Below, piece after piece: positions 1 to 18,367 of a DNA stretch of 18,367 bases (within the stretch, counting starts at the first letter, position 1; each line of letters begins with the position of its first letter). The notes under the pieces were generated by a model. That model ran no database searches and was not told where the DNA came from. It saw only the letters and a list, made by a program, of their open reading frames with translations. This DNA is from a virus. The position numbers and the translations under genes were made by a program. The DNA lies in the UHGV virus genome UHGV-0120185. The stretch is one strand, 5' to 3'.

Positions 1-1456
1 ACTTACAGCTCAGTCTGCCACCCCGTGTCAGCAGGGAGACTGCGTCATCCACCGGGCGCGTCAGGGACCAGGCTTTATTGCTCTGCTTGGTGATCTTAAA
101 TACACCCTCTGACAACTGAATTCCGCCATTCTTAATGCTCCAGCCCTGCGCAGCAGCATCTCCGGCTGTCGGCAACAGGGAGATTGTGCGTACGGATGCA
201 TCTTCAGACGGCCCCGATGGCGTGTCGCCGCCGGGCGAGGGTTTGATTTCCGGTGCCTTACCACTGATGAAGGCTAAGGTGCGACCGGCTACGTTCAGAA
301 TAGCGGTTGCCATACGATCGGGAATAATGCCACGACGCGCCCATGAGCTGAAATGCGTCTGGCGATTTGATGATACCCAGTTTTTGTTCGTTCGGGATGC
401 CGAACCGTAATATCCCTCACTTGCAGCATCCGGATCTTCCGTTGGTGCGTTGGTGGAGGTATTGTTGCCACTACCATCGGTCAGGAACGGCACAAAGAAA
501 ACGTTGTCGCTCTCCCTGTTTTTGTACGCCCCGTAAATGGTGTCGTACTGCGTGCCGTAGGTGTTTTTCCAGTAATACGTCGTGTCACCACAAATCCATG
601 GCACACTTGCCGCTCTGCCTCCATGACACTGCGTGTTAAACTCGGTAATGTCCGCACGAAACTGTTTCAGCATGGCCGTAAACAGCGGAGGTTGCTGTGA
701 GTACGTAGCGGCGCTCATGTCAAATTCGCCCTGCATCCAGCATACGGCCAGCAGCATGTTTTTTGGGTTTTTCTGCAATGCGGCCTTCGTGCGCAAAATC
801 AGGTCCTGATATAAAGGTTTACCCACACCCCAGCGAGCCGAATCCTGACTGGCTCCTGTGGACTCGCTGAATGTCCCCTCCGCGCCCAGGGTGAATGCCG
901 AACCACCACGACAGCATGGAACCAGTAAAATCCCGGCATTCTGTGGAATGTAAGGCAACAGGCGTTTGGCAATATGCAAGCCCTGTCCGACACAGCCATA
1001 CTGCCCTTTGCTCAGGTCTGCATTCGGGTGATTCAGTGCGCTCATATCCTGAACATCATGCAGGCAGTGGTCTGCCGGAATGATGTCGTTAAATGCGCAT
1101 GCTTTACCACCGGGAGTCACTGTGTTGCGACGGGCCAGTTGCTTAATGCGTGGGTGGGGCGCATCGTAAGAATCCGGCAGCGGCATTCCCTCACCATATG
1201 ACATGGCATTGGATTGACCAGCAAGTACCACCACGTAATACCACTCCGGCACGCTGCCGTGCTGGGGGGAATCAGGTGAGATGTCTGTAGTGCCATCGGC
1301 CACCATTGCCTGCATTAGATACCACGGGGTGCCGGGTTCGTAGGCAACCCGCGTCTCCCCCTGAAGATGCCACCCTTTCGCAAGATGTTCATTCACCTTT
1401 TGAGTCAGTTCAGCCTGTGTCATGGCTGTAATCAGTGCAAAGTTCTTACTGGTCAT
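1..1456 (-). CDS. NanS-like sialate O-acetylesterase (SGNH/SASA family), 3'-truncated by window start; at least 485 aa
   Basis: Hand translation of the minus strand from ATG at 1456 to position 1 has no stop. GQSN-type motif 'VVLAGQSNAMSYGEGMPLP', 'PCCRGGSAF', 'CWMQGEFD' and 'GDTTYYWK' match my recollection of E. coli NanS/YjhS and prophage NanS-p. N-terminal ~60 aa resemble the DUF1737-like leader. Start ATG overlaps the o-spanin stop (ATGA); RBS GGGAG upstream. Absent from the ORF track because it runs off the window. Confidence 0.7.
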   Translation of the reverse strand, partial: MTSKNFALITAMTQAELTQKVNEHLAKGWHLQGETRVAYEPGTPWYLMQAMVADGTTDISPDSPQHGSVPEWYYVVVLAGQSNAMSYGEGMPLPDSYDAPHPRIKQLARRNTVTPGGKACAFNDIIPADHCLHDVQDMSALNHPNADLSKGQYGCVGQGLHIAKRLLPYIPQNAGILLVPCCRGGSAFTLGAEGTFSESTGASQDSARWGVGKPLYQDLILRTKAALQKNPKNMLLAVCWMQGEFDMSAATYSQQPPLFTAMLKQFRADITEFNTQCHGGRAASVPWICGDTTYYWKNTYGTQYDTIYGAYKNRESDNVFFVPFLTDGSGNNTSTNAPTEDPDAASEGYYGSASRTNKNWVSSNRQTHFSSWARRGIIPDRMATAILNVAGRTLAFISGKAPEIKPSPGGDTPSGPSEDASVRTISLLPTAGDAAAQGWSIKNGGIQLSEGVFKITKQSNKAWSLTRPVDDAVSLLTRGGRLSCK

Positions 1457-1764
1457 TGTGTTACTCCCGTCTGGTGTGTCAGTTCGGCTATTCTCTTATC
1501 CAGTTCAGCAATGGCCCGTTTATCCGCGTTACAGGTTTCCAGTGCATCCAGAAGGCGGTCGCCCCATATTCCGAGGTTTCCCCATGTGGGTGGGTCAGGG
1601 AAGGGGGGAGGCGTTACCGGCATGGTCAGCGTCTGCGGTATAAGCCGGACTGACGGCGCTGGCCCTGGCGCGTTCTGCGTGCCTGCGCAACCTGTCAGTA
1701 AAACGAGCGTCAGGCAAAGCGTGGGCGCATTCATCTTTTGCAATATCGTTGCGTAGCTGTTCAC
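1453..1764 (-). CDS. o-spanin (Rz1/LysC-like outer-membrane lipoprotein)
   Basis: Lipobox 'LTLVLLTGCAG' after a short leader (probable start at the second Met, ~1734). Proline-rich mature part. Begins inside the i-spanin gene in another frame and extends past its stop, the overlapped spanin architecture. Confidence 0.6.
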   Translation of the reverse strand: MNSYATILQKMNAPTLCLTLVLLTGCAGTQNAPGPAPSVRLIPQTLTMPVTPPPFPDPPTWGNLGIWGDRLLDALETCNADKRAIAELDKRIAELTHQTGVTQ

Positions 1765-2002
1765 GTCTTACCTCTCCGTCCTGATTGCGTTGCTGATTTT
1801 CCGCGCGGAGCTGAGCCAGCACCTGCTGCATATCCTGTACCCCGGCGCTGATGATATTCAGTGTGTCGACGGTACTTTTCAGGGTGCTGGTCTGCGCTTC
1901 GTTTCTGGCGTTCTCCCGGCCCAGCGACCATGACAGACGCATGGATGTTCCCCATGCGGCAATCAGAAGGAAAGTGACGCCAAGCGTGGGCCAGAGCTTC
2001 AT
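1595..2002 (-). CDS. i-spanin (Rz/LysB-like), start at internal Met of the track ORF
   Basis: N-terminal TM 'MKLWPTLGVTFLLIAAWG' then coiled-coil-like Q/R/E-rich segment. ATG at 2002 overlaps the endolysin TGA stop (ATGA). Position directly after the endolysin. Confidence 0.6.
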   Translation of the reverse strand: MKLWPTLGVTFLLIAAWGTSMRLSWSLGRENARNEAQTSTLKSTVDTLNIISAGVQDMQQVLAQLRAENQQRNQDGEVRREQLRNDIAKDECAHALPDARFTDRLRRHAERARASAVSPAYTADADHAGNASPLP

Positions 2003-2391
2003 GCCGGATAGGCTCCGTGTGGTAACTGAAAATGCGGTCCGTCTTTCAGGGTCTTCCAGTCGCCGCCCCATTCCACCGGAATATTCAGTTCCCGGCTGGC
2101 CTGTCTGAATGCTGCTGCGATTTTTTCGTACAGCGGCCATTCCCATGACACCTGGCTGCCAACATAAGCCACAACATCCACGGCATGCCCTGTGAGATGG
2201 CGACTGTTCATGGTCTGGCTCTTGCCTGTGGTCACGAGCTGCTTCTGACGATAACGACTGCGCAATCCTTCGGTGATACCAAAATCCACTTCCGAAATTT
2301 CCAGTGCCCGTCGGGTCACTTTCACCAGATCAGGATTTACGCCCTGCAAATTCTTTTCGCTCCGGCTGCTGAATTTAAATGTGTTGCTCAT
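1999..2391 (-). CDS. endolysin, peptidase M15 family (L-alanyl-D-glutamate peptidase-like)
   Basis: Zinc-ligand motif 'SRHLTGHAVDV' (SxHxxGxAxD) and downstream 'DGPHFQ'. 130 aa, between holin and spanins. Start ATG overlaps the holin stop (ATGA). Confidence 0.8.
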   Translation of the reverse strand: MSNTFKFSSRSEKNLQGVNPDLVKVTRRALEISEVDFGITEGLRSRYRQKQLVTTGKSQTMNSRHLTGHAVDVVAYVGSQVSWEWPLYEKIAAAFRQASRELNIPVEWGGDWKTLKDGPHFQLPHGAYPA

Positions 2392-2711
2392 TCGTCCTTC
2401 TCCTTCACCCTGCGATTAAAGGCCGCAATAACCTTGTCGCGTGCTTTCTCTGCCCCCATAAAACCGATTGATGCGCCGATAAACGTCACGGCATCTTCAG
2501 GAAAACCGAAGAAGCGCAACGACCCGGCCACGGCCATGGCAAGAACGCCGCACGCCAGCGATCCCGTTACGGTCTGAACCAGTGTTCGTCCGTCATAAAG
2601 ACTCATCAGCGCGGAAATGCTGACCGCCGCGCCTACTGCATACACCGTTGGCAGGTGGTCAAAGAGCCATGCAATAACCTGTTCTGTGATCCCTGTTTGA
2701 ATGGTGCTCAC
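2388..2711 (-). CDS. holin (P2 gpY-like), GTG start
   Basis: 107 aa from GTG at 2711 with RBS GGAG 5 nt upstream, directly after the gpX TAG stop. Three hydrophobic segments and a charged C-terminus (RRVKEKDE). The longer track ORF (start 2930) would overlap gpX/gpL and is rejected. Confidence 0.6.
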   Translation of the reverse strand: MSTIQTGITEQVIAWLFDHLPTVYAVGAAVSISALMSLYDGRTLVQTVTGSLACGVLAMAVAGSLRFFGFPEDAVTFIGASIGFMGAEKARDKVIAAFNRRVKEKDE

Positions 2712-2713
2712 TG

Positions 2714-2914
2714 CTACTCCCCCCACAACTGAATCATTTCTCGTTTCTTCTTCTCCGGCTCCGGCATCTCCACTTCCTGCCCGGCGTCCAGAAATACCTG
2801 CTGACAGAGTCCGGGGTTGGCATCCAGCACCTTTTCGGTGACGCCCTGCGTCGTGCCGTAGTACCGGAAACAGAGCGAATCCACGGTGTCGCCTTCCAGT
2901 GCCTTCACTTTCAT
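2714..2914 (-). CDS. X: P2 gpX-like tail protein X (LysM-like)
   Basis: 'LEGDTVDSLCFRYYGTTQGVTEKVLDANPGL' matches the gpX family signature as recalled. 66 aa from internal Met; start overlaps the gpL stop by 1 nt. Confidence 0.75.
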   Translation of the reverse strand: MKVKALEGDTVDSLCFRYYGTTQGVTEKVLDANPGLCQQVFLDAGQEVEMPEPEKKKREMIQLWGE

Positions 2915-3417
2915 CAGCACAACTCCGCAAAGATTCGCGGGCGGCACAGAATGTCAGAGATGGCCCAGCTCACATCACGCCACAAATCCGATGTCTGTAT
3001 ATCCAGAGCGTCCGCCCGGCGGTCGCCCTTGTCCGTTGTGTCTGCATCACGATAACGCTCCAGAATCAGGGCGCGCGTGGCGGTATAAACAGCATTGCGC
3101 CAGTGCCAGAGATTGACGCTTTCTCCGTTAATTACAGGGGCCGGAACATCGGCCAGCGTCTGATGGCCAGCCGCCTGCTGTTCCTGCTGCCACGCTTCCA
3201 GCTCGCGGGTAACGTGTGCCACGGCCCCGGTGGCGGTATGCAGCAGGCGGGAGGTGGTCACACGGCCCGGCAGTCGTACCGCCAGACGCAGCTCACGCAG
3301 CACAATATCCGGCCAGAATGCACCCGCTGAAATACGGGTATCACCATCATCGGTATCGGTGATGTCGTCCTCTGCGGGTCCGGGGTTGGTTCTGGCAACC
3401 ATACTCATGGGGTTCAC
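2914..3417 (-). CDS. L: P2 gpL-like head completion/stabilisation protein
   Basis: 'LADVPAPVINGES', 'ERYRDADTTDKGDRRADALD', 'DLWRDVSWAISDI' align with P2 gpL as recalled. RBS AGGAG 8 nt upstream of ATG at 3417. Confidence 0.8.
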   Translation of the reverse strand: MNPMSMVARTNPGPAEDDITDTDDGDTRISAGAFWPDIVLRELRLAVRLPGRVTTSRLLHTATGAVAHVTRELEAWQQEQQAAGHQTLADVPAPVINGESVNLWHWRNAVYTATRALILERYRDADTTDKGDRRADALDIQTSDLWRDVSWAISDILCRPRIFAELC

Positions 3418-3509
3418 TCCTGAAAAAATCGGGCGGTGGGTGCGCGGTGTAAACGGTCACGGAGTCAAACCGGAACACCGCGCACGCCGCCCGCTGACGG
3501 GGTCAGTCG

Positions 3510-3977
3510 TTAACCGCGCTTCGCCTTCTGCGTCGCGGTGGTTTTTCGTGTTGCAGGCTTCCGCGTTGTCTTTTTACTTTTGCTGCTTTCGTCCTGCGCC
3601 TGCGGTGTGCTGGCATCTTCTGGTGCGGCTGCGGAATCGGCTTTTTTCAGGGCGCGGGAAAGGGTTGCAATCTCGCGTTTCACACCTGCGTTCGGGTTAC
3701 GGCGTTTGATGCCGTCATAACTGCTATTCGTGCGCGCAATTGGCCCGGTGGTGTCCAGGAGGATTTTTTCGCCTTTCTGGTCGGTCACGCCGATCACGTT
3801 AATTCTTTTCGTAAATTCGGTACTTTCCTTTGAGGCGTTTTCAAAACGCTGCTGCACCGCGGGTTCCACGGTAAATCGCGATACCAGTGCAGATACCGGG
3901 ATATTGTTAAGCGACGCCTGCTGCGCCATATAGCAACCCAGCTTGTTGCGGGTAATATCTGACATCACCAGATTCAT
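3510..3977 (-). pseudogene. in-frame fusion of capsid gpN N-terminus with small terminase gpM C-terminus (deletion remnant)
   Basis: Residues ~30-95 ('FTVEPAVQQRFENASKESTEFTKRINVIGVTDQKGEKILLDTTGPIARTN') match the N-terminal region of P2 major capsid gpN. Residues ~105-155 ('AGVKREIATLSRALK...TTRKPATRKTTATQKAKRG') match the basic C-terminal tail of gpM. Only 155 aa, where N plus M normally span about 600 aa. Confidence 0.6.
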
Positions 3978-4000
3978 AAAAAATTTGCTCCTTTGTCTTA

Positions 4001-8280: not shown

Positions 8281-8619
8281 CTATAGCTTTGATGCAGGCT
8301 GGGCTAGGTCTCCTTTGATGCCAGTGTTTACAACCTGACAAGCCTCTTTGAGTACCCAGTCAACAGCGTCTTTCCATGCTCCGGTTTCGGCTGGCGGATT
8401 CTCACGCTTTACCAGTTCATAGAATCGTACTGCTCTAACCAGTCCATCTGACGGTTTTGCCTGTAGTGCAGCCTGAGCTATGCGGTATGCCTGGAGCATA
8501 CGGGCGTCGTTGATATCCATTCCGAACGGAATTTCTGATGATTGTGATTCTGCATCTTCAAGCCTGGCAATTTCTTTACGTAAAAAGTATTTCAACTCTT
8601 GTTTTTGTTTTCTGTTCAT
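8281..8619 (-). CDS. hypothetical protein (112 aa), partner of the ClpX-zinc-ribbon-like protein
   Basis: ATG overlaps the upstream gene's stop (ATGA), followed by the terminator. No family recognised. Confidence 0.55.
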
Positions 8620-8948
8620 GCGTTTTTTCCCTTTTTGTCTGTCACTTCTCTCCTGATAATTTCATTGCACAAATCCACGCACTCATTGCAGATGCAAACA
8701 GACGGTCCGGCAATCACCTTTGTGACTTCGTACTGAGATTTATTGCAGAAGCTGCAATAAATCGTCTCCTCGCCTGAAGTCCATGTTTTGCTGGTTTCGC
8801 CAGACATCAGTTGTTTGAGGTCTTTTTCACGACGAAGAACTATCTGGCCACATTCAGCTATTTTTTGGATGTTGACATTTTCTTCTTTCGCCAGCGCTTC
8901 CATCCGCTCAATCAGTCGCTGCGCTTTTTCTCTGTCAATGTGTTGCAT
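8616..8948 (-). CDS. small protein with C-terminal ClpX N-terminal-type C4 zinc-ribbon domain
   Basis: C-terminal '[39 protein letters not shown]' versus ClpX N-domain '[39 protein letters not shown]' as recalled (about 30/40 identical, all four Zn-ligand Cys kept). N-terminal ~60 aa unrelated and helical. RBS AAGGGGG before ATG at 8948. Confidence 0.75.
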
Positions 8949-8982
8949 TGTGTCCCCCTTGTTTATGTTCCCGGATTAAAGT

Positions 8983-9006
8983 CATCAGGGCGGATGCGCC
9001 CTGATG
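8983..9006. promoter_or_regulatory. perfect 10-bp-stem hairpin (CATCAGGGCG-gatg-CGCCCTGATG) between parR and the zinc-ribbon gene
   Basis: Read directly. The arm CGCCCTGAT recurs at 9026-9034 inside the parR 3' end. No U-tract on the coding strand. Confidence 0.35.
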
Positions 9007-9011
9007 TTGTG

Positions 9012-9323
9012 TTATTCGGGAAATAACGCCCTGATATTTCCGGCCATCCGACTGGTTATCTGTGAGGTTGGTACTGGCTGTGACGCGGGGCGTTCTGTCC
9101 TGGTTTGTGTCACTGATAACGCCTCATCGTCAGCCCATGCAGCCAGTCGGTAAGCCTCTGCCGGATTCATTTTCAGAAGTGCCAGCCCGGCCAGAAAAGC
9201 CACACGTTGGCCGCTTTTGCGGGCTTCTGGTGTAAGGCTGTCCAGCCAGGTGCATGCTTCGCCTTCGTTCTTGACGGCGGCGGGCTTCAGATAGAAACTT
9301 ATCCGTCTGGTTGGTGTCGTCAT
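9012..9323 (-). CDS. parR: ParR-like centromere-binding protein (type II partition)
   Basis: 103 aa from internal Met 4 nt after the parM stop, RBS AAGGAG. 'RRISFYLKP...LDSL...RVAFLAGLALLKMNP...NIRALFPE' parallels plasmid R1 ParR as recalled. Confidence 0.7.
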   Translation of the reverse strand: MTTPTRRISFYLKPAAVKNEGEACTWLDSLTPEARKSGQRVAFLAGLALLKMNPAEAYRLAAWADDEALSVTQTRTERPASQPVPTSQITSRMAGNIRALFPE

Positions 9324-9327
9324 TGGT

Positions 9328-10287
9328 TTACTCCTTGTCCATTGCGTACAGCCCATTAACCAGAGCAAACTGTGGCACCCCGTCCGCGATGAAAGTCGCA
9401 TTAACTCCGCAGGCTTCGCGGATAGCGGGTGCCACAATCTCCGCCCCGCCACCGACAACCATCACCCGCCCGTAACCCGAAAAACCCGCCAGCGCGCGGA
9501 TCACTCGTTGTTTCAGTGTTTCTTCCTTTTCACGAATAACCGCCATCAGGCTGTCGTAATGCGCGTCATTGTGGATGTGCTGGCGCAGCCAGGCTTCATC
9601 ATGGCGATGTTCGATAATGGTATTGGCGATGTGGTGACTGGTGCGCATACCGTTAGTGGCCATCACCGACAGTACGGCATCGGCCATCAGAGAAACGCCT
9701 ACGTGTGGATCGCAAAACACCTGGCTGATACCTGCCAGTTGCCCCTGAACCTTTGCCACATCCAGCGTGGTTCCGCCCAAATCCACAATCAGCAGGGATT
9801 CAAACGGACTCATGTCAGCCAGTGCCTTAAAGCCAGCCGGAATGGATTCAGGCATAACCCGCACGTTACGGATAGTGAATGCTTCGCCGTTCTGGTACTC
9901 CACCGGGCGCATAACGTTCGCTTTTTTGCGGTTGATGTTGGCCATGTCCGGCTGTGCGTTTGTGTCGAAATACTCGCTCAGTGGCAGGGTGACAACCACA
10001 TCCACCTCCTGTGGCGTGATGCCTGATTTGACCAGCGCGTGATGAATGGCAATTACATTCACATCGCTGTACTGGTATTGCGTGTCGGTCGTCTGGACAA
10101 ATCGATCGCTGACCGGATCAAAACCATAGCGCACGCCATCAAGCATGTAGTTTGCGGGCTGCATGCCACCGAACGGCGCAGACCATTCCGATTTGAAGCT
10201 GTTCGGGCTGATGGCGTTGCGGCGTTCGCCGTTCTCAGTCCATGCCAGCTTGATGTTGGTGGAGCCGTCGTCGATACAAATTTTCAT
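9328..10287 (-). CDS. parM: ParM-like actin-type partition ATPase
   Basis: 'MKICIDDGSTNIKLAW', 'YQYSDVNVIAIHHAL', 'RKKANV', 'VMPESIPAGF', 'LLIVDLGGTTLDV', 'VMVVGGGAE', 'ALVNGLY' are collinear with plasmid R1 ParM/StbA as recalled. RBS AAGGA before ATG. Confidence 0.9.
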   Translation of the reverse strand: MKICIDDGSTNIKLAWTENGERRNAISPNSFKSEWSAPFGGMQPANYMLDGVRYGFDPVSDRFVQTTDTQYQYSDVNVIAIHHALVKSGITPQEVDVVVTLPLSEYFDTNAQPDMANINRKKANVMRPVEYQNGEAFTIRNVRVMPESIPAGFKALADMSPFESLLIVDLGGTTLDVAKVQGQLAGISQVFCDPHVGVSLMADAVLSVMATNGMRTSHHIANTIIEHRHDEAWLRQHIHNDAHYDSLMAVIREKEETLKQRVIRALAGFSGYGRVMVVGGGAEIVAPAIREACGVNATFIADGVPQFALVNGLYAMDKE

Positions 10288-10316
10288 GTCGATTTTCCTT
10301 ATGTTGATTAATTAAT

Positions 10317-10429
10317 CGTTTACGGGGTTTTTAAATCCCGTTTTTGCCTGTTTTATGCGCGCTTCATATATCGCGGCGCGTTTTTTGCTCATTTACGGGT
10401 TTTGTGAATCCCGTTTCTGTCTGTTTTTT
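10317..10429. repeat. two ~38-bp direct repeats 73 bp apart, candidate parC-like centromere/operator
   Basis: Copy 1 at 10317-10354 (cgtttacggggtttttaaatcccgtttttgcctgtttt), copy 2 at 10390-10429 (catttacgggttttgtgaatcccgtttctgtctgtttttt), ~85% identical. Each holds an ACGGG...CCCGT hairpin. Copy 1 is in the A-parM gap, copy 2 inside the last codons of A. Confidence 0.5.
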
Positions 10430-13186
10430 GTTTCCACTGGTCAGGCTACCCCGCAGCAGGTCTGCTTTGCGGCGGGCGCGTTCAGTGGTTTCACTGATTC
10501 TCTGTGCGTGCTCTGCGTCACGGATGGCGCGCAGCATGTCAGAAAGCACGGTAACGGGGGTTTTCATGGTGTTCTGGTCCTGCTGAAGTGTGGATGCCAG
10601 GCGTGCGGCGGCTTCGGGGTCTGATGCCCCCAGCTGTTCCAGATAGCCGGCGACCGGGTTATGGCGGATCTCCGTGCTGCTTACGCCGTGATTACGGCTC
10701 AGGCGCTGCCAGAGCTGCGTGATTCGGCTGTCCGGGCGGGTATCCGGTTTGCGTACAATTTCAAATCCCTGCGGTGCAATGATGCTGCCGTCAACGTACA
10801 GGCTGCCGCCCCGTAACAGGTGCTGCATCTGCTGTTCACCGATATGCAGGCCGAGAGATTCGGCAGACTCCCGCCATTCTTTAGCGAGTAATTCGTGGTT
10901 ATCAGGCAAAGGCCGCTGCTGTTTGCGGCTCTGTGTCCAGCTCTGCATTTCATCACTGCTGTTTTTTGCCTGTTTATCATGAAGCGAACGCATCAGCGCC
11001 CGGCGTTCGTGCCGTTTCAGTGAGCGCATCCATTCGTTCACTTCAACGCCATCAGGGAGCTGCGGCCACGGTGCTGGCCGTTCTTCCGGCTGTTCTGCCC
11101 CGTTGTTGTTCGTTTCCTGTACACGGGGACAGTTATTGCCACGAGTCCAAGGGGCGGCAGGGCCGCCCTGAAGGTCAAAACCATTTTCGCGGGCGCTGTC
11201 TTCCGCTTCCGGTTTACGTCTTACCAGCTTCCAGTTATCCGGATGCGTGCACACACGGGAGGATTCCCCGATGAGTGGTGACCAGATCCCGTAAATCTGT
11301 ACGCTCTGTTCGCCGTAATCGTTCAGCTCATCTGCGAGGTCGTAGGCGGTGCGAATCAGGTAGTCCTTGCGCGGAACAAGTACGCCACCCTGTTTTTCAA
11401 TGTAGGTGGCAAAACACCCGGCATCAGCGGCAGCAAGAACCGCATCCATTGCGTCATCCTTCAGCCGTTGCGGGCCTTCCGGGCTGCGTGCCATCTGGCT
11501 GGCAAGGCGGCGGAGTTCACGCCACACCTGACGGGAGGGAATGCCAAAGAACTGGAACTGGCGGACCCGGTGAAGGCGCGCCCAGCCGATGGCGCGTTCC
11601 ACGCTCTCGGCCATTGATTTTCCGGTTTCGTGGTCAACGCGTGGTTTGCCTGTTTTCGGGTCGATGCCATCCACGGCCCGGCTGTCCAGGTTTTTTCCGA
11701 TGTAGGTCGCGATATAGCTGGTTGGTGTGCCTTTTGAGCCGTCGACATACTCCGCCTTAAAGCGCGGAGTAATATCATTGCCCAGCTCGTGGCGGTCTTC
11801 CTGAATGGCAATATCGCGGGTGATGGCCACGATGCTGTCGATTTCTTCCGGATGAGCAAAGACCATCATATGCCAGTGCACGGTGCCGTCATGGTGAGGC
11901 TCCACCGTGCGGATGCCATACCAGCGAAGACCGTCGCGGTTCAGTTTTTTGCGGACCGCCGCAAAAAACGTGTTAACCAGGTAATCGCTGGAGTCGCGCA
12001 TGGTGGCCCCGTTCCATCTGGGATTCGGATGACCGTTCTCCGTTGTGGCGTGGTATTTTGACGGGCAGGTGACAGTCAGAAACACCGCTTTGTCGCCACG
12101 GGCTTCAGCCAGAAGTTCCAGCCCCTTCATGGTGGCCATCATTTCTGCCTTACGGTGAACCGGGTTACTTACTCCCGCGTAATACACCGTCTCGAGATCA
12201 ATCGTGAACCCGTCTTCATTTTCCAGCATGAAACTTTTCAGGAAATCGCGTGTTTTCTCGCGCTGTGCGCGAAACTCGCTTAACGCGTCCTGGCTCAGAT
12301 AGGGCGATGTTTTTCTGGAAACCAGACAGGCGGCGCGGAGTTGTTCTTCTCTCCACTCGCAACGTAACAGCCACAGTTTGCGTTTCCACCATTCCGCACA
12401 GGTCAGGCGAAGGATTGCGCCCGGCAGCAGTTCTGTGTCCGGTTCGTGCCTCCGGTCTTTGTCTGTTGTCAGTGCGTCATAATGCGGAGGCATGGCGTGT
12501 AAGTGTAACGCCATGCGGGCCAGCATCTGATACGCCTTCAGCGTTACATCCATGGTCAGCTCGCCATCAGTCGCGCCAAAACCATCGCAGAGTTTTTCGA
12601 AGGTGCTGCTGAACATCGCCGCCGTCATGGTGGCCAGCGTCTGTATCTGGTGTTTGTTGAGTTGCGGCAGGTAAAGCAAATCGTCCAGGCGTTCACGTCC
12701 GGCAAGGGAGCGATAACCCGATGTCAGCCAGCGGTGATCGGTGCGCTCCAGACGTTCGAATATTTTGCGCAGGGTCCCACGCGCATAGCGTTCTGCCTGC
12801 CTGGCGTTTTTTCCTTTCTGACGATCGGCTTCCTGTTTTTTGCGCAGGAAGGAGAGGTGGCGAATAAGCGGATCGCGCAGATAGGACGGCAGCAGGCGCA
12901 GTGAGGCCATGGCCTCATCTACCGCGCCGCGTGCCTGTTTTCTGGCGTCTCCTGCCAGTGTGATTGTTTTGTCCTGTTTTTCCTGTGCGTCCAGGCTTTT
13001 ATTAATCAGGTTGCCCAGCGGCGTGGCGGAGAACGCCGCATCAGCCATTTCCTGGCGGCGCTCGTTCTCTGCCCGGTAGGCATCCAGCCAGGAGGAAAGC
13101 GCGGATTCAGGAGCGGGGATCCCCGTTCCTTCACGCCCCACTGCGTGGCGCGGTTGTTGCCAGTCCCTGATGTACTCTGCCGTCAT
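10364..13186 (-). CDS. A: P2 gpA-like rolling-circle replication initiator (HUH endonuclease)
   Basis: HUH motif 'VHWHMMVF' and twin-tyrosine motif 'SYIATYIGK'. 940 aa, position between early genes and the accessory locus as in P2. Confidence 0.85.
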   Translation of the reverse strand: MTAEYIRDWQQPRHAVGREGTGIPAPESALSSWLDAYRAENERRQEMADAAFSATPLGNLINKSLDAQEKQDKTITLAGDARKQARGAVDEAMASLRLLPSYLRDPLIRHLSFLRKKQEADRQKGKNARQAERYARGTLRKIFERLERTDHRWLTSGYRSLAGRERLDDLLYLPQLNKHQIQTLATMTAAMFSSTFEKLCDGFGATDGELTMDVTLKAYQMLARMALHLHAMPPHYDALTTDKDRRHEPDTELLPGAILRLTCAEWWKRKLWLLRCEWREEQLRAACLVSRKTSPYLSQDALSEFRAQREKTRDFLKSFMLENEDGFTIDLETVYYAGVSNPVHRKAEMMATMKGLELLAEARGDKAVFLTVTCPSKYHATTENGHPNPRWNGATMRDSSDYLVNTFFAAVRKKLNRDGLRWYGIRTVEPHHDGTVHWHMMVFAHPEEIDSIVAITRDIAIQEDRHELGNDITPRFKAEYVDGSKGTPTSYIATYIGKNLDSRAVDGIDPKTGKPRVDHETGKSMAESVERAIGWARLHRVRQFQFFGIPSRQVWRELRRLASQMARSPEGPQRLKDDAMDAVLAAADAGCFATYIEKQGGVLVPRKDYLIRTAYDLADELNDYGEQSVQIYGIWSPLIGESSRVCTHPDNWKLVRRKPEAEDSARENGFDLQGGPAAPWTRGNNCPRVQETNNNGAEQPEERPAPWPQLPDGVEVNEWMRSLKRHERRALMRSLHDKQAKNSSDEMQSWTQSRKQQRPLPDNHELLAKEWRESAESLGLHIGEQQMQHLLRGGSLYVDGSIIAPQGFEIVRKPDTRPDSRITQLWQRLSRNHGVSSTEIRHNPVAGYLEQLGASDPEAAARLASTLQQDQNTMKTPVTVLSDMLRAIRDAEHAQRISETTERARRKADLLRGSLTSGNKKQTETGFTKPVNEQKTRRDI

Positions 13187-17212: not shown

Positions 17213-18214
17213 ATGTCGGTTCGTAAGATTCCATCAGGTAAATGGCTTTGCGAATGTTATCCCTACGGGGCATCGGGAAAACGCATTCGTAAACAGTTTG
17301 CGACAAAAAGTGAGGCGCTCTCTTATGAGCGCCGTTTAATGAATAGTAGAGTTGGAGACGAGTTTCAAGATGGTTCTGGTCCTCGTCTTTCTGAGTTGAT
17401 TGCTCGTTGGTTTGAGATGTACGGTAAAACCTTGTCCTCTGGTGCAGAGCGCAAAGTCAAACTTGAGGCGATTTGTTCCAGGCTGGGAGATCCATTTGCT
17501 TCTCAGTTTGACAAAAATATGTTTGCTACTTATCGGGAAAGAAGGCTATCAGGAGAATGGAATCCCAAGGGGAAGAAAAAACTTAGTGAAGCAACCGTTA
17601 ATCGCGAGCAGTCATATCTACATGCTGTTTTTGCCGAACTGAAGCGCCTTGGGGAGTGGTCTGGTGAAAACCCCCTGACTGGTATTCGCAAGTTTCGTGA
17701 GGAAGAAAAGGAACTGGCGTTTCTGTATGTAGATGAGATTGAACGCCTTCTGATTGCGTGTGATGAGTCACGGAATAAAGATTTGGGGGTTGTTGTCCGT
17801 ATTGGGCTTGCGACGGGTGCTCGGTGGAGTGAAGCAGAAGGATTAAAGCAATCTCAAGTACTGCCCGGTCGAATCACATTTGTTAAAACTAAAGGAAAGA
17901 AGAACCGCACTGTACCGATTTCACCTCAATTGCAGGCTATGCTTCCTAAAAAACGAGGAGCGCTATTTTCACCATGTTATGAGGCTTTTGACGCTGCAAT
18001 TAAGAGAGCGAAGATCGAGCTTCCTGATGGGCAATTAACTCATGTGCTACGTCACACGTTTGCCAGTCATTTTATGATGCGGGGCGGAAATATTCTTGTG
18101 TTGCAAAAAATACTGGGGCATAGCGATATAAAAATGACTATGCGTTATGCGCATTTTGCTCCAGGTCATTTAGAGGCTGCTGTTGAATTGAACCCTTTTG
18201 ACAATAGAGGGTAA
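17213..18214 (+). CDS. int: P2-type tyrosine integrase
   Basis: 'LATGARWSEA', 'FVKTKGKKNRTVPIS', 'HVLRHTFASHFMMRGGNILVLQKILGHSDIKMTMRYAHFAP', 'LNP' match the P2 Int catalytic region as recalled (R, H-x-x-R, Y). Confidence 0.92.
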   Translation: MSVRKIPSGKWLCECYPYGASGKRIRKQFATKSEALSYERRLMNSRVGDEFQDGSGPRLSELIARWFEMYGKTLSSGAERKVKLEAICSRLGDPFASQFDKNMFATYRERRLSGEWNPKGKKKLSEATVNREQSYLHAVFAELKRLGEWSGENPLTGIRKFREEEKELAFLYVDEIERLLIACDESRNKDLGVVVRIGLATGARWSEAEGLKQSQVLPGRITFVKTKGKKNRTVPISPQLQAMLPKKRGALFSPCYEAFDAAIKRAKIELPDGQLTHVLRHTFASHFMMRGGNILVLQKILGHSDIKMTMRYAHFAPGHLEAAVELNPFDNRG

Positions 18215-18320: not shown

Positions 18321-18367
18321 TTTAAAATCCCTCGGCGTTCGCGCTGTGCGGGTTCAAGTCCCGCTCC
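18321..18367 (+). other. att core: 3' part of a class II tRNA-Leu (anticodon UAA, leuZ-like), truncated copy continuing past the window end
   Basis: TTTAAAATCCCTCGGCGTTCGCGCTGTGCGGGTTCAAGTCCCGCTCC matches the anticodon-loop-to-T-arm portion of enterobacterial tRNA-Leu(UAA) as recalled. T-arm GCGGG-TTCAAGT-CCCGC and long variable arm are visible. Upstream sequence cannot form the anticodon stem or acceptor/D arms, so this is a partial copy. Confidence 0.6.

Follow-up and report, generated by a model that had tools for sequence, protein, structure and literature searches.

A NanS-p-family sialate O-acetylesterase gene as probable accessory cargo at the lysC|R junction of a P88-like Escherichia coli prophage

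The stretch of virus genome UHGV-0120185 considered here (18,367 nucleotides, the whole of which is referred to as the window) runs out at its left end inside a large esterase gene that directly follows the o-spanin gene of a lysis cassette, at the place where phage P2 would carry the tail-completion genes R and S. The question raised by this locus is what the gene encodes, and whether it was placed there as cargo for release at lysis or marks a tail region that has been replaced. An earlier note made from the letters alone had proposed a NanS-like sialate O-acetylesterase and had offered both origins. Here, gene integrity, protein family, catalytic motifs, gene order, insertion boundaries, purifying selection, and distribution were determined directly, and they make it likely that the gene encodes a NanS-p-family sialate O-acetylesterase carried as accessory cargo in the late operon of a P88-like prophage, with the mode of expression, release, and action set out below.

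The esterase gene (1..1456) is real and intact. It lies on the minus strand, a point not stated in the earlier note, and its frame, read from 1456 to 1, is open for all 485 codons, without the mis-read internal stop that the hand translation might have hidden; the frame exits the window at its left end, which is why the gene is absent from the program-made list of open reading frames. In NZ_CP077477, which has 100.0% DNA identity to window positions 1–1456, the esterase gene is 1878 bp long and encodes 625 amino acids (aa; WP_000202140.1), so that the portion within the window corresponds to codons 1–485 of 625, with the 3′ end beyond the left edge, which the earlier note did not state either. 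On its 5′ side the gene directly follows lysC (1453..1641, minus strand), which encodes a 62-aa o-spanin lipoprotein (Pfam LysC, 1.6e-13; RefSeq annotation of a relative) with the lipobox LTGC (MNAPTLCLTLVLLTGC) and is itself embedded in the 3′ end of the i-spanin gene. The proposed ATGA start/stop overlap can be seen at 1453..1456 (minus strand; the plus strand reads TCAT), where the esterase ATG occupies 1456–1454 and the lysC TGA 1455–1453, and a Shine-Dalgarno (SD) sequence, GGGAG, can be read at 1464..1468 (minus strand), 7 nt 5′ of the esterase ATG and within the 3′ end of lysC.

Judged by its sequence, the product is a member of the three-domain NanS-p family, which consists of a DUF1737 domain, a SASA catalytic domain, and a lectin-like C-terminal domain, and the NanS-p-like SGNH/SASA identity suggested earlier is borne out by every one of the four matches to SASA, DUF1737, PHROG 143, and NanS. 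The Pfam SASA model (PF03629) matches aa 75–271 above its cut-off (43.5 bits versus 24.8), the Pfam DUF1737 model (PF08410) matches aa 4–53 as a divergent subtype (29.3 bits versus a cut-off of 24), PHROG 143 aligns from end to end (E 2.6e-258), and the E. coli 9-O-acetyl-Neu5Ac esterase NanS (PDB 3pt5) aligns over aa 69–388 (E 7.4e-126); no NCBIfam model matches the esterase. All domains are encoded on the minus strand. The DUF1737 domain (1298..1447, aa 4–53) is of a subtype found in P2 contexts, here called subtype B, whose loop carries the invariant EPG[TV]PWYLMQ. It is followed by a low-complexity linker (1253..1297, aa 54–68, DGTTDISPDSPQHGS), with a predicted local distance difference test score (pLDDT) below 50 at residues 57–70, and by the catalytic SASA/SGNH domain (293..1252, aa 69–388), which was delimited by residue-by-residue alignment to NanS 3pt5 and is 57–65% identical to catabolic NanS. 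The window then contains the first ~64 residues (aa 422–485, positions 1..193) of the lectin-like jelly-roll C-terminal domain, which is recognized as Pfam DUF6645 (PF20350) in the full-length protein (aa 476–586, 70 bits, in a full-length relative whose window part is identical).

The catalytic residues can be assigned with the Block I, III, and V motif definitions reviewed for SASA (PMC9487903). Block I is G80-Q81-S82-N83 in the context LAGQSNAMSYG, with the Ser82 codon at 1213–1211 and alignment to the corresponding motif of 3pt5; Block III is Q242-G243-E244 in the context CWMQGEFD (codons 733–725), of which the glycine and the glutamate are unchanged in all aligned homologues; and the Block V histidine is His368 (codon 355–353), where RQTHFSS aligns to RSSHFSS of NanS. 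The GQSN, QGE, and His368 residues are unchanged in 17–18 homologues. The position three residues before His368 is an arginine rather than an aspartate, as in E. coli NanS (EcNanS), and this agrees with the description of the SASA/CE6 branch, in which the serine nucleophile follows an oxyanion-hole glutamine and EcNanS does without the usual Block V aspartate (PMC9487903).

An AlphaFold2 (AF2) model was built on a full-length homologue with 99% identity (P0011) from an alignment of 17 sequences, and only its N- and C-terminal domains were used, since the catalytic domain was poorly predicted (pLDDT 30–40 over residues 82–157 and 327–374). The N-terminal domain is predicted as a strand-helix-strand-strand unit (E5–11, H14–26, E30–38, and E46–53; pLDDT 70–84), and the C-terminal domain as an all-beta jelly roll (residues 422–620; pLDDT 80–90). 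A Foldseek search against the PDB ranked NanS first, matched the C-terminal domain to that of vb_24B_21 from phage phi24B (6yp6, template modelling score 0.84), and gave as third hit the sialic-acid-binding domain of the Vibrio cholerae sialidase (2w68), the nearest non-phage match for the lectin domain. Purifying selection acts on all domains of the esterase, the ratio of nonsynonymous to synonymous substitution rates (dN/dS) being ~0.1–0.2 per domain wherever it could be estimated and ~0.09 for DUF1737 against homologue P0049, a comparison in which dS is near saturation.

Two known systems can be compared with the window esterase. The NanS-p proteins of lambdoid and Shiga toxin (Stx) phages of enterohaemorrhagic E. 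coli (EHEC), such as L0105/z1466 of 933W and vb_24B_21 (gp84) of phi24B, have the same three domains and identical catalytic motifs; identity to the phi24B/933W-type alleles is 48–51% and to the JLK-2012/Stx1a-type alleles 80%. Both the window esterase and these proteins are phage-borne and without a secretion signal, and the late expression of the lambdoid genes would be predicted for the window gene too from its place in the operon, but the window gene resides in a P2-family myovirus (Xuanwuvirus), is probably coupled in translation to an o-spanin gene as the lambdoid genes are not, and has a separate DUF1737 subtype that is 22–38% identical to theirs. The chromosomal NanS (YjhS, 3pt5) shares the full-length catalytic domain, the inverted oxyanion hole formed by GQSN and QGE, and the Ser-His pair without a Block V aspartate; unlike the window esterase, it consists of one domain only (~326 aa), belongs to the sialic-acid catabolic regulon, and has neither DUF1737 nor a lectin domain.

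The P2-type late operon in which the earlier note had placed the gene agrees with both gene content and relatives, and by sequence the window is a P88-like E. coli prophage (Xuanwuvirus, Peduoviridae, P2-family). On the minus strand the order is gene O scaffold, an N′-M′ fusion, L, X, holin, endolysin, lysB, lysC, and esterase, with terminase P and portal Q on the plus strand. The rest of the window is 97–98% identical to P88 (O, L, X, holin, M15 endolysin, spanin, terminase, portal, ParM, and replication), but in P88 lysC overlaps R directly without an esterase, as it does in at least 10 related phage records, and these phages match the window only from 1509 onward. Aligned with P88, the esterase-bearing sequence has 1,995 bp in place of 93 bp, and this segment comprises the last 56 nt of lysC (1453–1508, which differ from P88 and belong to the esterase cassette), the esterase gene, a 23-nt spacer, and the first 14 codons of R. 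The closest complete genome, that of E. coli O111:H21 strain 15A, is 99.3% identical over 1–4000 and 100.0% over 1–1456; there the 1878-bp esterase gene, annotated as a "DUF6645 domain-containing protein", is followed after 23 nt by R and then by S, V, W, J, I, H, and G. The same layout is found in EC958, of sequence type 131 (ST131), where a 625-aa orthologue is found in the corresponding place of the P2-like prophage, in a stretch of 4 kb that shares 98.3% identity with the window, and also with a second esterase allele ~89% identical in DNA. The order lysC-esterase-R-S-V is found in close and distant P2-like prophages alike, the esterase being kept at the lysC|R junction in the distant lineages too, and differs from the lambdoid position, which is between Q/stx and the holin gene S and is a matter of customary context, not a defining trait of the NanS-p family. 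As R, S, and the tail genes are kept after the esterase and only 93 bp of P88 are lost, the event was a 2.0-kb insertion at lysC|R and not a tail replacement.

The term moron, the other origin suggested earlier, fits in part. Its absence from most P88-like phage records marks the gene as accessory cargo, but the promoter and terminator of a classical moron were not found. In 5.1 kb there are two sigma-70-like matches, against 2.9 expected by chance, and the one near the esterase (9/12) ends inside its start codon; no terminator-like site was found between lysC and the esterase. A promoter or terminator of its own was accordingly rejected, the sigma-70-like match being weak and at chance level. 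The guanine-plus-cytosine content of the insert (0.52–0.57, flanks 0.53–0.63) was uninformative. On this evidence the esterase gene resembles a built-in cistron of the late operon more than a moron with signals of its own.

For transcription in the late operon, translational coupling, release at lysis, and the substrate, the last taken from characterised NanS and NanS-p relatives, we infer the following course of events. The esterase would be transcribed on a late transcript that also covers O-(N-M)-L-X-holin-endolysin-lysB-lysC, with no promoter or terminator of its own, and its translation would be coupled to that of lysC by the ATGA overlap and the SD sequence inside lysC. Having no signal peptide, the enzyme would leave when the co-expressed holin, endolysin, and spanins lyse the cell. 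Outside, the Ser82/His368 active site, with Gln81 and QGE as the oxyanion hole, would take 7-, 8-, and 9-O-acetyl groups off sialic acids on mucus glycans, the lectin-like domain would aid substrate targeting, and the de-acetylated sugars would become usable by sialidases and by E. coli. Two published observations on relatives are in line with these steps: the NanS-p genes of Stx phages rise by 1–2.4 logs with the late genes upon induction with mitomycin C (PMC10462455), and NanS-p enzymes de-O-acetylate Neu5,9Ac2 and mucin glycans (PMC8065619). By analogy with them the window enzyme would have 9-O-acetyl sialic acid esterase activity. Release at lysis seems reasonable, and a preprint on phi24B, discussed below, adds capsid attachment through DUF1737 as a second route. 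Several points weigh against this account. Matches to the P2 Ogr-type late-promoter motif TGT-N12-ACA number two, fewer than expected by chance, and none lies near or upstream of gene O; that the protein has no signal peptide was decided by visual inspection alone; relatives are the source for the last 140 residues and for the genes beyond the left edge of the window; and overexpression of EC958_1029, the probable ST131 orthologue, gave no motility phenotype, unlike that of its lambdoid paralogue, an experiment that is silent on esterase activity (PMC5425062).

The particular prophage copy in the window carries a deletion in its head genes. At 3510..3977 (minus strand) an in-frame fusion combines ~95 codons from the start of capsid gene N with ~60 codons from the end of the small-terminase gene M, with the Pfam and PHROG matches split across the reading frame. 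The window differs here from P88 and from all other relatives by 1,431 missing bp, the blastn breakpoints showing an 8-bp microhomology (TTCGGGTT) at 3691–3698, and the N-M junction is absent from all 5,426 complete E. coli genomes. With the capsid and small-terminase genes mostly lost, the copy is defective for head assembly and packaging. As it cannot build heads, the esterase could work here solely in free form, provided that the late and lysis genes are still expressed to release it.

The N-terminal domain separates P2-context from lambdoid copies more sharply than the rest of the protein does. At the DNA level the resemblance to lambdoid alleles ends near window position 1250, the boundary between linker and catalytic domain (megablast matches cover 1–1250), and in tblastn residues 1–71 are matched at 100% only in three P88-like phages, all other matches being at most 36% identical. 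When the N-terminal 71 aa were used as a protein query, the hits were all truncated fragments of the same protein, and none was a stand-alone or differently fused subtype-B DUF1737. Relative to the window protein, other P2-context copies are 56–100% identical in DUF1737, 69–89% in SASA, and 37–98% in the C-terminal domain, versus 22–38%, 67–93%, and 35–98% for lambdoid and untyped copies; the closest lambdoid-type alleles (JLK-2012, P0019, P0028, and P0030) reach 82–93% in SASA and 80–98% in the C-terminal domain. At ~70% identity of the catalytic domain, the N-terminal domain is 56–64% identical within P2 contexts versus 22–33% across phage types. Three homologues with 53–64% overall identity (P0049, P0068, and P0082) share the N-terminal subtype, EPG[TV]PWYLMQ included, and likewise lie at the lysC|R junction, in their case of P2-like prophages that are more distant and have a lysozyme-type endolysin. 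All P2-context copies share this distinct subtype, and among IMG/VR and other fetched loci P2 head genes lie upstream of 25 of 25 subtype-B loci versus none of ~68 loci of the lambdoid subtype A1.

The core of the protein is also found on other N-termini. In one prophage (P0102, L093 1015–3768) the SASA and DUF6645 core is joined to a prophage tail-fibre N-terminal domain (PF08400) and a coiled coil, and the gene lies at the prophage end, after a tail-fibre assembly gene; in a Mu-like prophage (P0129, L091 10001–12070) the core has an unrelated N-terminus of ~110 aa and lies beside an invertase. Four N-terminal anchors were found in all, namely DUF1737-A (lambdoid), DUF1737-B (P2-like), the tail-fibre N-terminal domain, and the different N-terminus of the Mu-like prophage. 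Between the window (1–1456) and another P2-context copy (L004 3582–5459) the DUF1737 is identical (0 differences in 55 codons) yet the catalytic domain has diverged (dS ~0.46), which indicates recombination inside the gene even among P2-context copies.

Other readings of the locus can be weighed against that of accessory cargo. Mosaic replacement of the tail-completion genes or of the tail region, the second origin in the earlier note, could be entertained because the window ends inside the esterase gene and R and S are not directly visible, but it is contradicted by every relative with sequence past the gene: the 100%-identical copy and all other P2-context copies are followed by intact R, S, V, W, J, I, H, and G, the P88 sequence lost amounts to 93 bp only, and the rare hybrids with lambdoid genes after the esterase (L017) seem to stem from crossovers inside the gene and not to represent the normal state, so that this reading can hardly be upheld. 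A decaying, non-functional passenger gene is just as hard to sustain; this prophage copy is itself defective through the N-M deletion, but the esterase frame is intact with all catalytic motifs kept, dN/dS is ~0.1–0.2, and intact copies occur in hundreds of genomes. Action on bacterial glycans, by which the enzyme would remove O-acetyl groups from O-antigen or a polysialic-acid capsule and so aid the adsorption of progeny or free phage from debris, has been raised for NanS-p (PMC8065619), and late expression, possible virion association, and the existence of the tail-fibre-fused variant would suit such a role in the phage life cycle. It is nevertheless improbable, given that every characterised relative acts on free or mucin-bound O-acetyl sialic acids, that the catalytic domain is 57–65% identical to that of catabolic NanS, and that the nearest non-phage structural match of the lectin domain is a sialic-acid-binding module.

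Display on the virion would add to release at lysis and does not exclude it. Here DUF1737 would dock the esterase at the centre of gpN hexons of the P2-type head, and the particle would carry a mucus-directed enzyme, possibly shed by self-cleavage. The precedent is phi24B, for which a 2026 preprint based on cryo-electron microscopy and proteomics reports that gp84 is abundant in virions, that its DUF1737 forms a hexamer plugging the central hexon of each facet of the T=9 capsid through a loop tyrosine, and that the rest of the protein is cleaved off (10.64898/2026.04.10.717836). In the window protein, the predicted helix with three antiparallel strands fits the description of the gp84 domain, the β2–β3 loop is the best-conserved stretch of subtype B, and DUF1737 is under purifying selection (dN/dS ~0.09). 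The association of subtype B with P2 head genes, the greater N-terminal similarity within P2 contexts at equal catalytic divergence, the exchange of N-termini in P0102 and P0129, and the position of the gene among structural genes without regulatory signals of its own point the same way. The association, however, need not reflect selection: lambdoid alleles can recombine with these copies only where there is homology, and since this runs out at the linker (about window 1250), the N-terminus stays linked to its upstream flank. A rule that DUF1737 subtype always tracks head type failed on the lambdoid loci, where an identical A1 N-terminus lies upstream of a lambda-like head module (17 loci) and of an unrelated HK97-like module (7), and this lowered confidence in a capsid-adaptation reading. 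In addition, Tyr42 of phi24B is not conserved in position, the aligned residue being Thr43 in a loop of different length that carries W45-Y46, invariant within the subtype; T=7 P2 heads are without the threefold-axis hexon that is the sole site of gp84 in phi24B; and the lack of the gene in most P88-like phage records implies that it is not needed for head stability. Virion display is, on these grounds, possible but unlikely, and the broader proposal that the P2-context DUF1737 is a docking module matched to the P2-type gpN shell, with the NanS-p core as a portable payload on differing virion anchors, is a shade more doubtful still. If it were true, P2-like heads could carry up to hundreds of copies of a mucus-glycan-modifying enzyme, and no decoration protein with enzymatic activity would have been described from a P2-family head before it. 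The P2 copies have their own version of the domain shown by the preprint to bind phi24B capsids, and P2 offers a second, structurally well-studied capsid for the virion question.

The accessory esterase is widespread in E. coli. At least 80% of window 1–4000 is held by 374 of the 5,426 complete E. coli genomes, many of them ST131, and 299 records contain a copy of 1–1456 at 95% identity or more. The protein is encoded by 353 of 50,697 phage records, of which only three are P2-like (PV468777, vB_EcoM-569R5, and vB_EcoM-705R2) and the remainder lambdoid, mostly Stx phages. With one genome per species, a full-family scan found three-domain members only in Escherichia, and a scan for the subtype-B motif found none. 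No literature linking NanS, NanS-p, or an acetylesterase to P2-like or Peduoviridae phages was found in the searchable literature. A 2017 study of ST131 described EC958_1029 as a NanS-like paralogue with 82.7% identity to the 617-aa lambdoid EC958_1546 (PMC5425062), a figure that agrees with the identities computed here. From its position and identity, EC958_1029 is probably the same gene as the window esterase; in the study it figured only as a NanS-like paralogue within a motility screen, and its P2-type context was not taken up (PMC5425062).

The novelty of the locus is modest, in that the enzyme family and its chemistry were already known; what is new is the residence in a P2-family late operon at a conserved junction, the P2-specific DUF1737 subtype, and the wide occurrence outside EHEC. 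The literature has so far dealt with NanS-p proteins almost exclusively as accessories of EHEC phages of the Shiga-toxin and other lambdoid kinds, and they can now be placed in the P2-family late operon as well. Roughly 6% of complete E. coli genomes, pandemic ST131 strains among them, carry an esterase-bearing P2-family prophage, and more strains may therefore be able to unlock O-acetylated host sialic acids when a subpopulation lyses.

The esterase gene is also a site of exchange between prophages. In one locus (L017, esterase 10001–11884) P2-type head and lysis genes and a subtype-B esterase are followed by lambdoid lysis, terminase, and portal genes, and in three others (L024, L034, and L086) a lambdoid early/Q region and a subtype-A1 esterase are followed by P2 R, S, V, W, and J. 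These hybrid junctions inside the gene look like homologous recombination between P2-like and lambdoid prophages, for example by chromosomal inversion, with assembly chimeras as another possible source. A shared esterase gene could in this way act as a recombination bridge between unrelated P2-like and lambdoid prophages in one chromosome, which can rearrange genomes and make hybrid prophages. A small DUF1378 gene, sometimes together with DUF826, follows the esterase at several loci (L006–L008 and L010, ~12036–12213; L091 12235–12707; L003 5387–5879). As these include lambdoid and Mu-like as well as distant P2-like contexts, the small gene and the esterase may move jointly as a cassette; it is absent from the window lineage, in which R follows after 23 nt instead.

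The remaining lysis genes lie on the minus strand to the right of lysC and comprise a lysB-like i-spanin gene (DUF2570; 1595..2002; PHROG 214, Rz-like spanin, 9.6e-42; annotation), an M15 peptidase endolysin gene (1999..2391; Pfam Peptidase_M15_4; PHROG 465, 2e-76), and a holin gene (2388..2711; Pfam Phage_holin_3_1, 5e-19; annotation of a relative). Farther to the right are ParM and partition genes, a gene for a 940-aa replication protein (10364–13186), a repressor region, and an integrase gene (17213–18214). A ParM-type segregation ATPase, a partition/stability protein, and a ClpX-type zinc-finger protein are encoded at 8616–10287 on the minus strand, as they are in P88, and form a plasmid-like maintenance module within an integrating P2-like phage. 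ARAGORN found no complete tRNA within the window. The last 47 nt (18321–18367), just past the integrase gene, are identical to the 3′ part of the tRNA-Leu gene adjoining pgsA in strain 15A and are probably the core of the attachment site. The replication gene is truncated beside pgsA in strain 15A (L001 20795–21674) and full-length, at 940 aa, in the window, and the two strains therefore hold differently decayed copies of one prophage.

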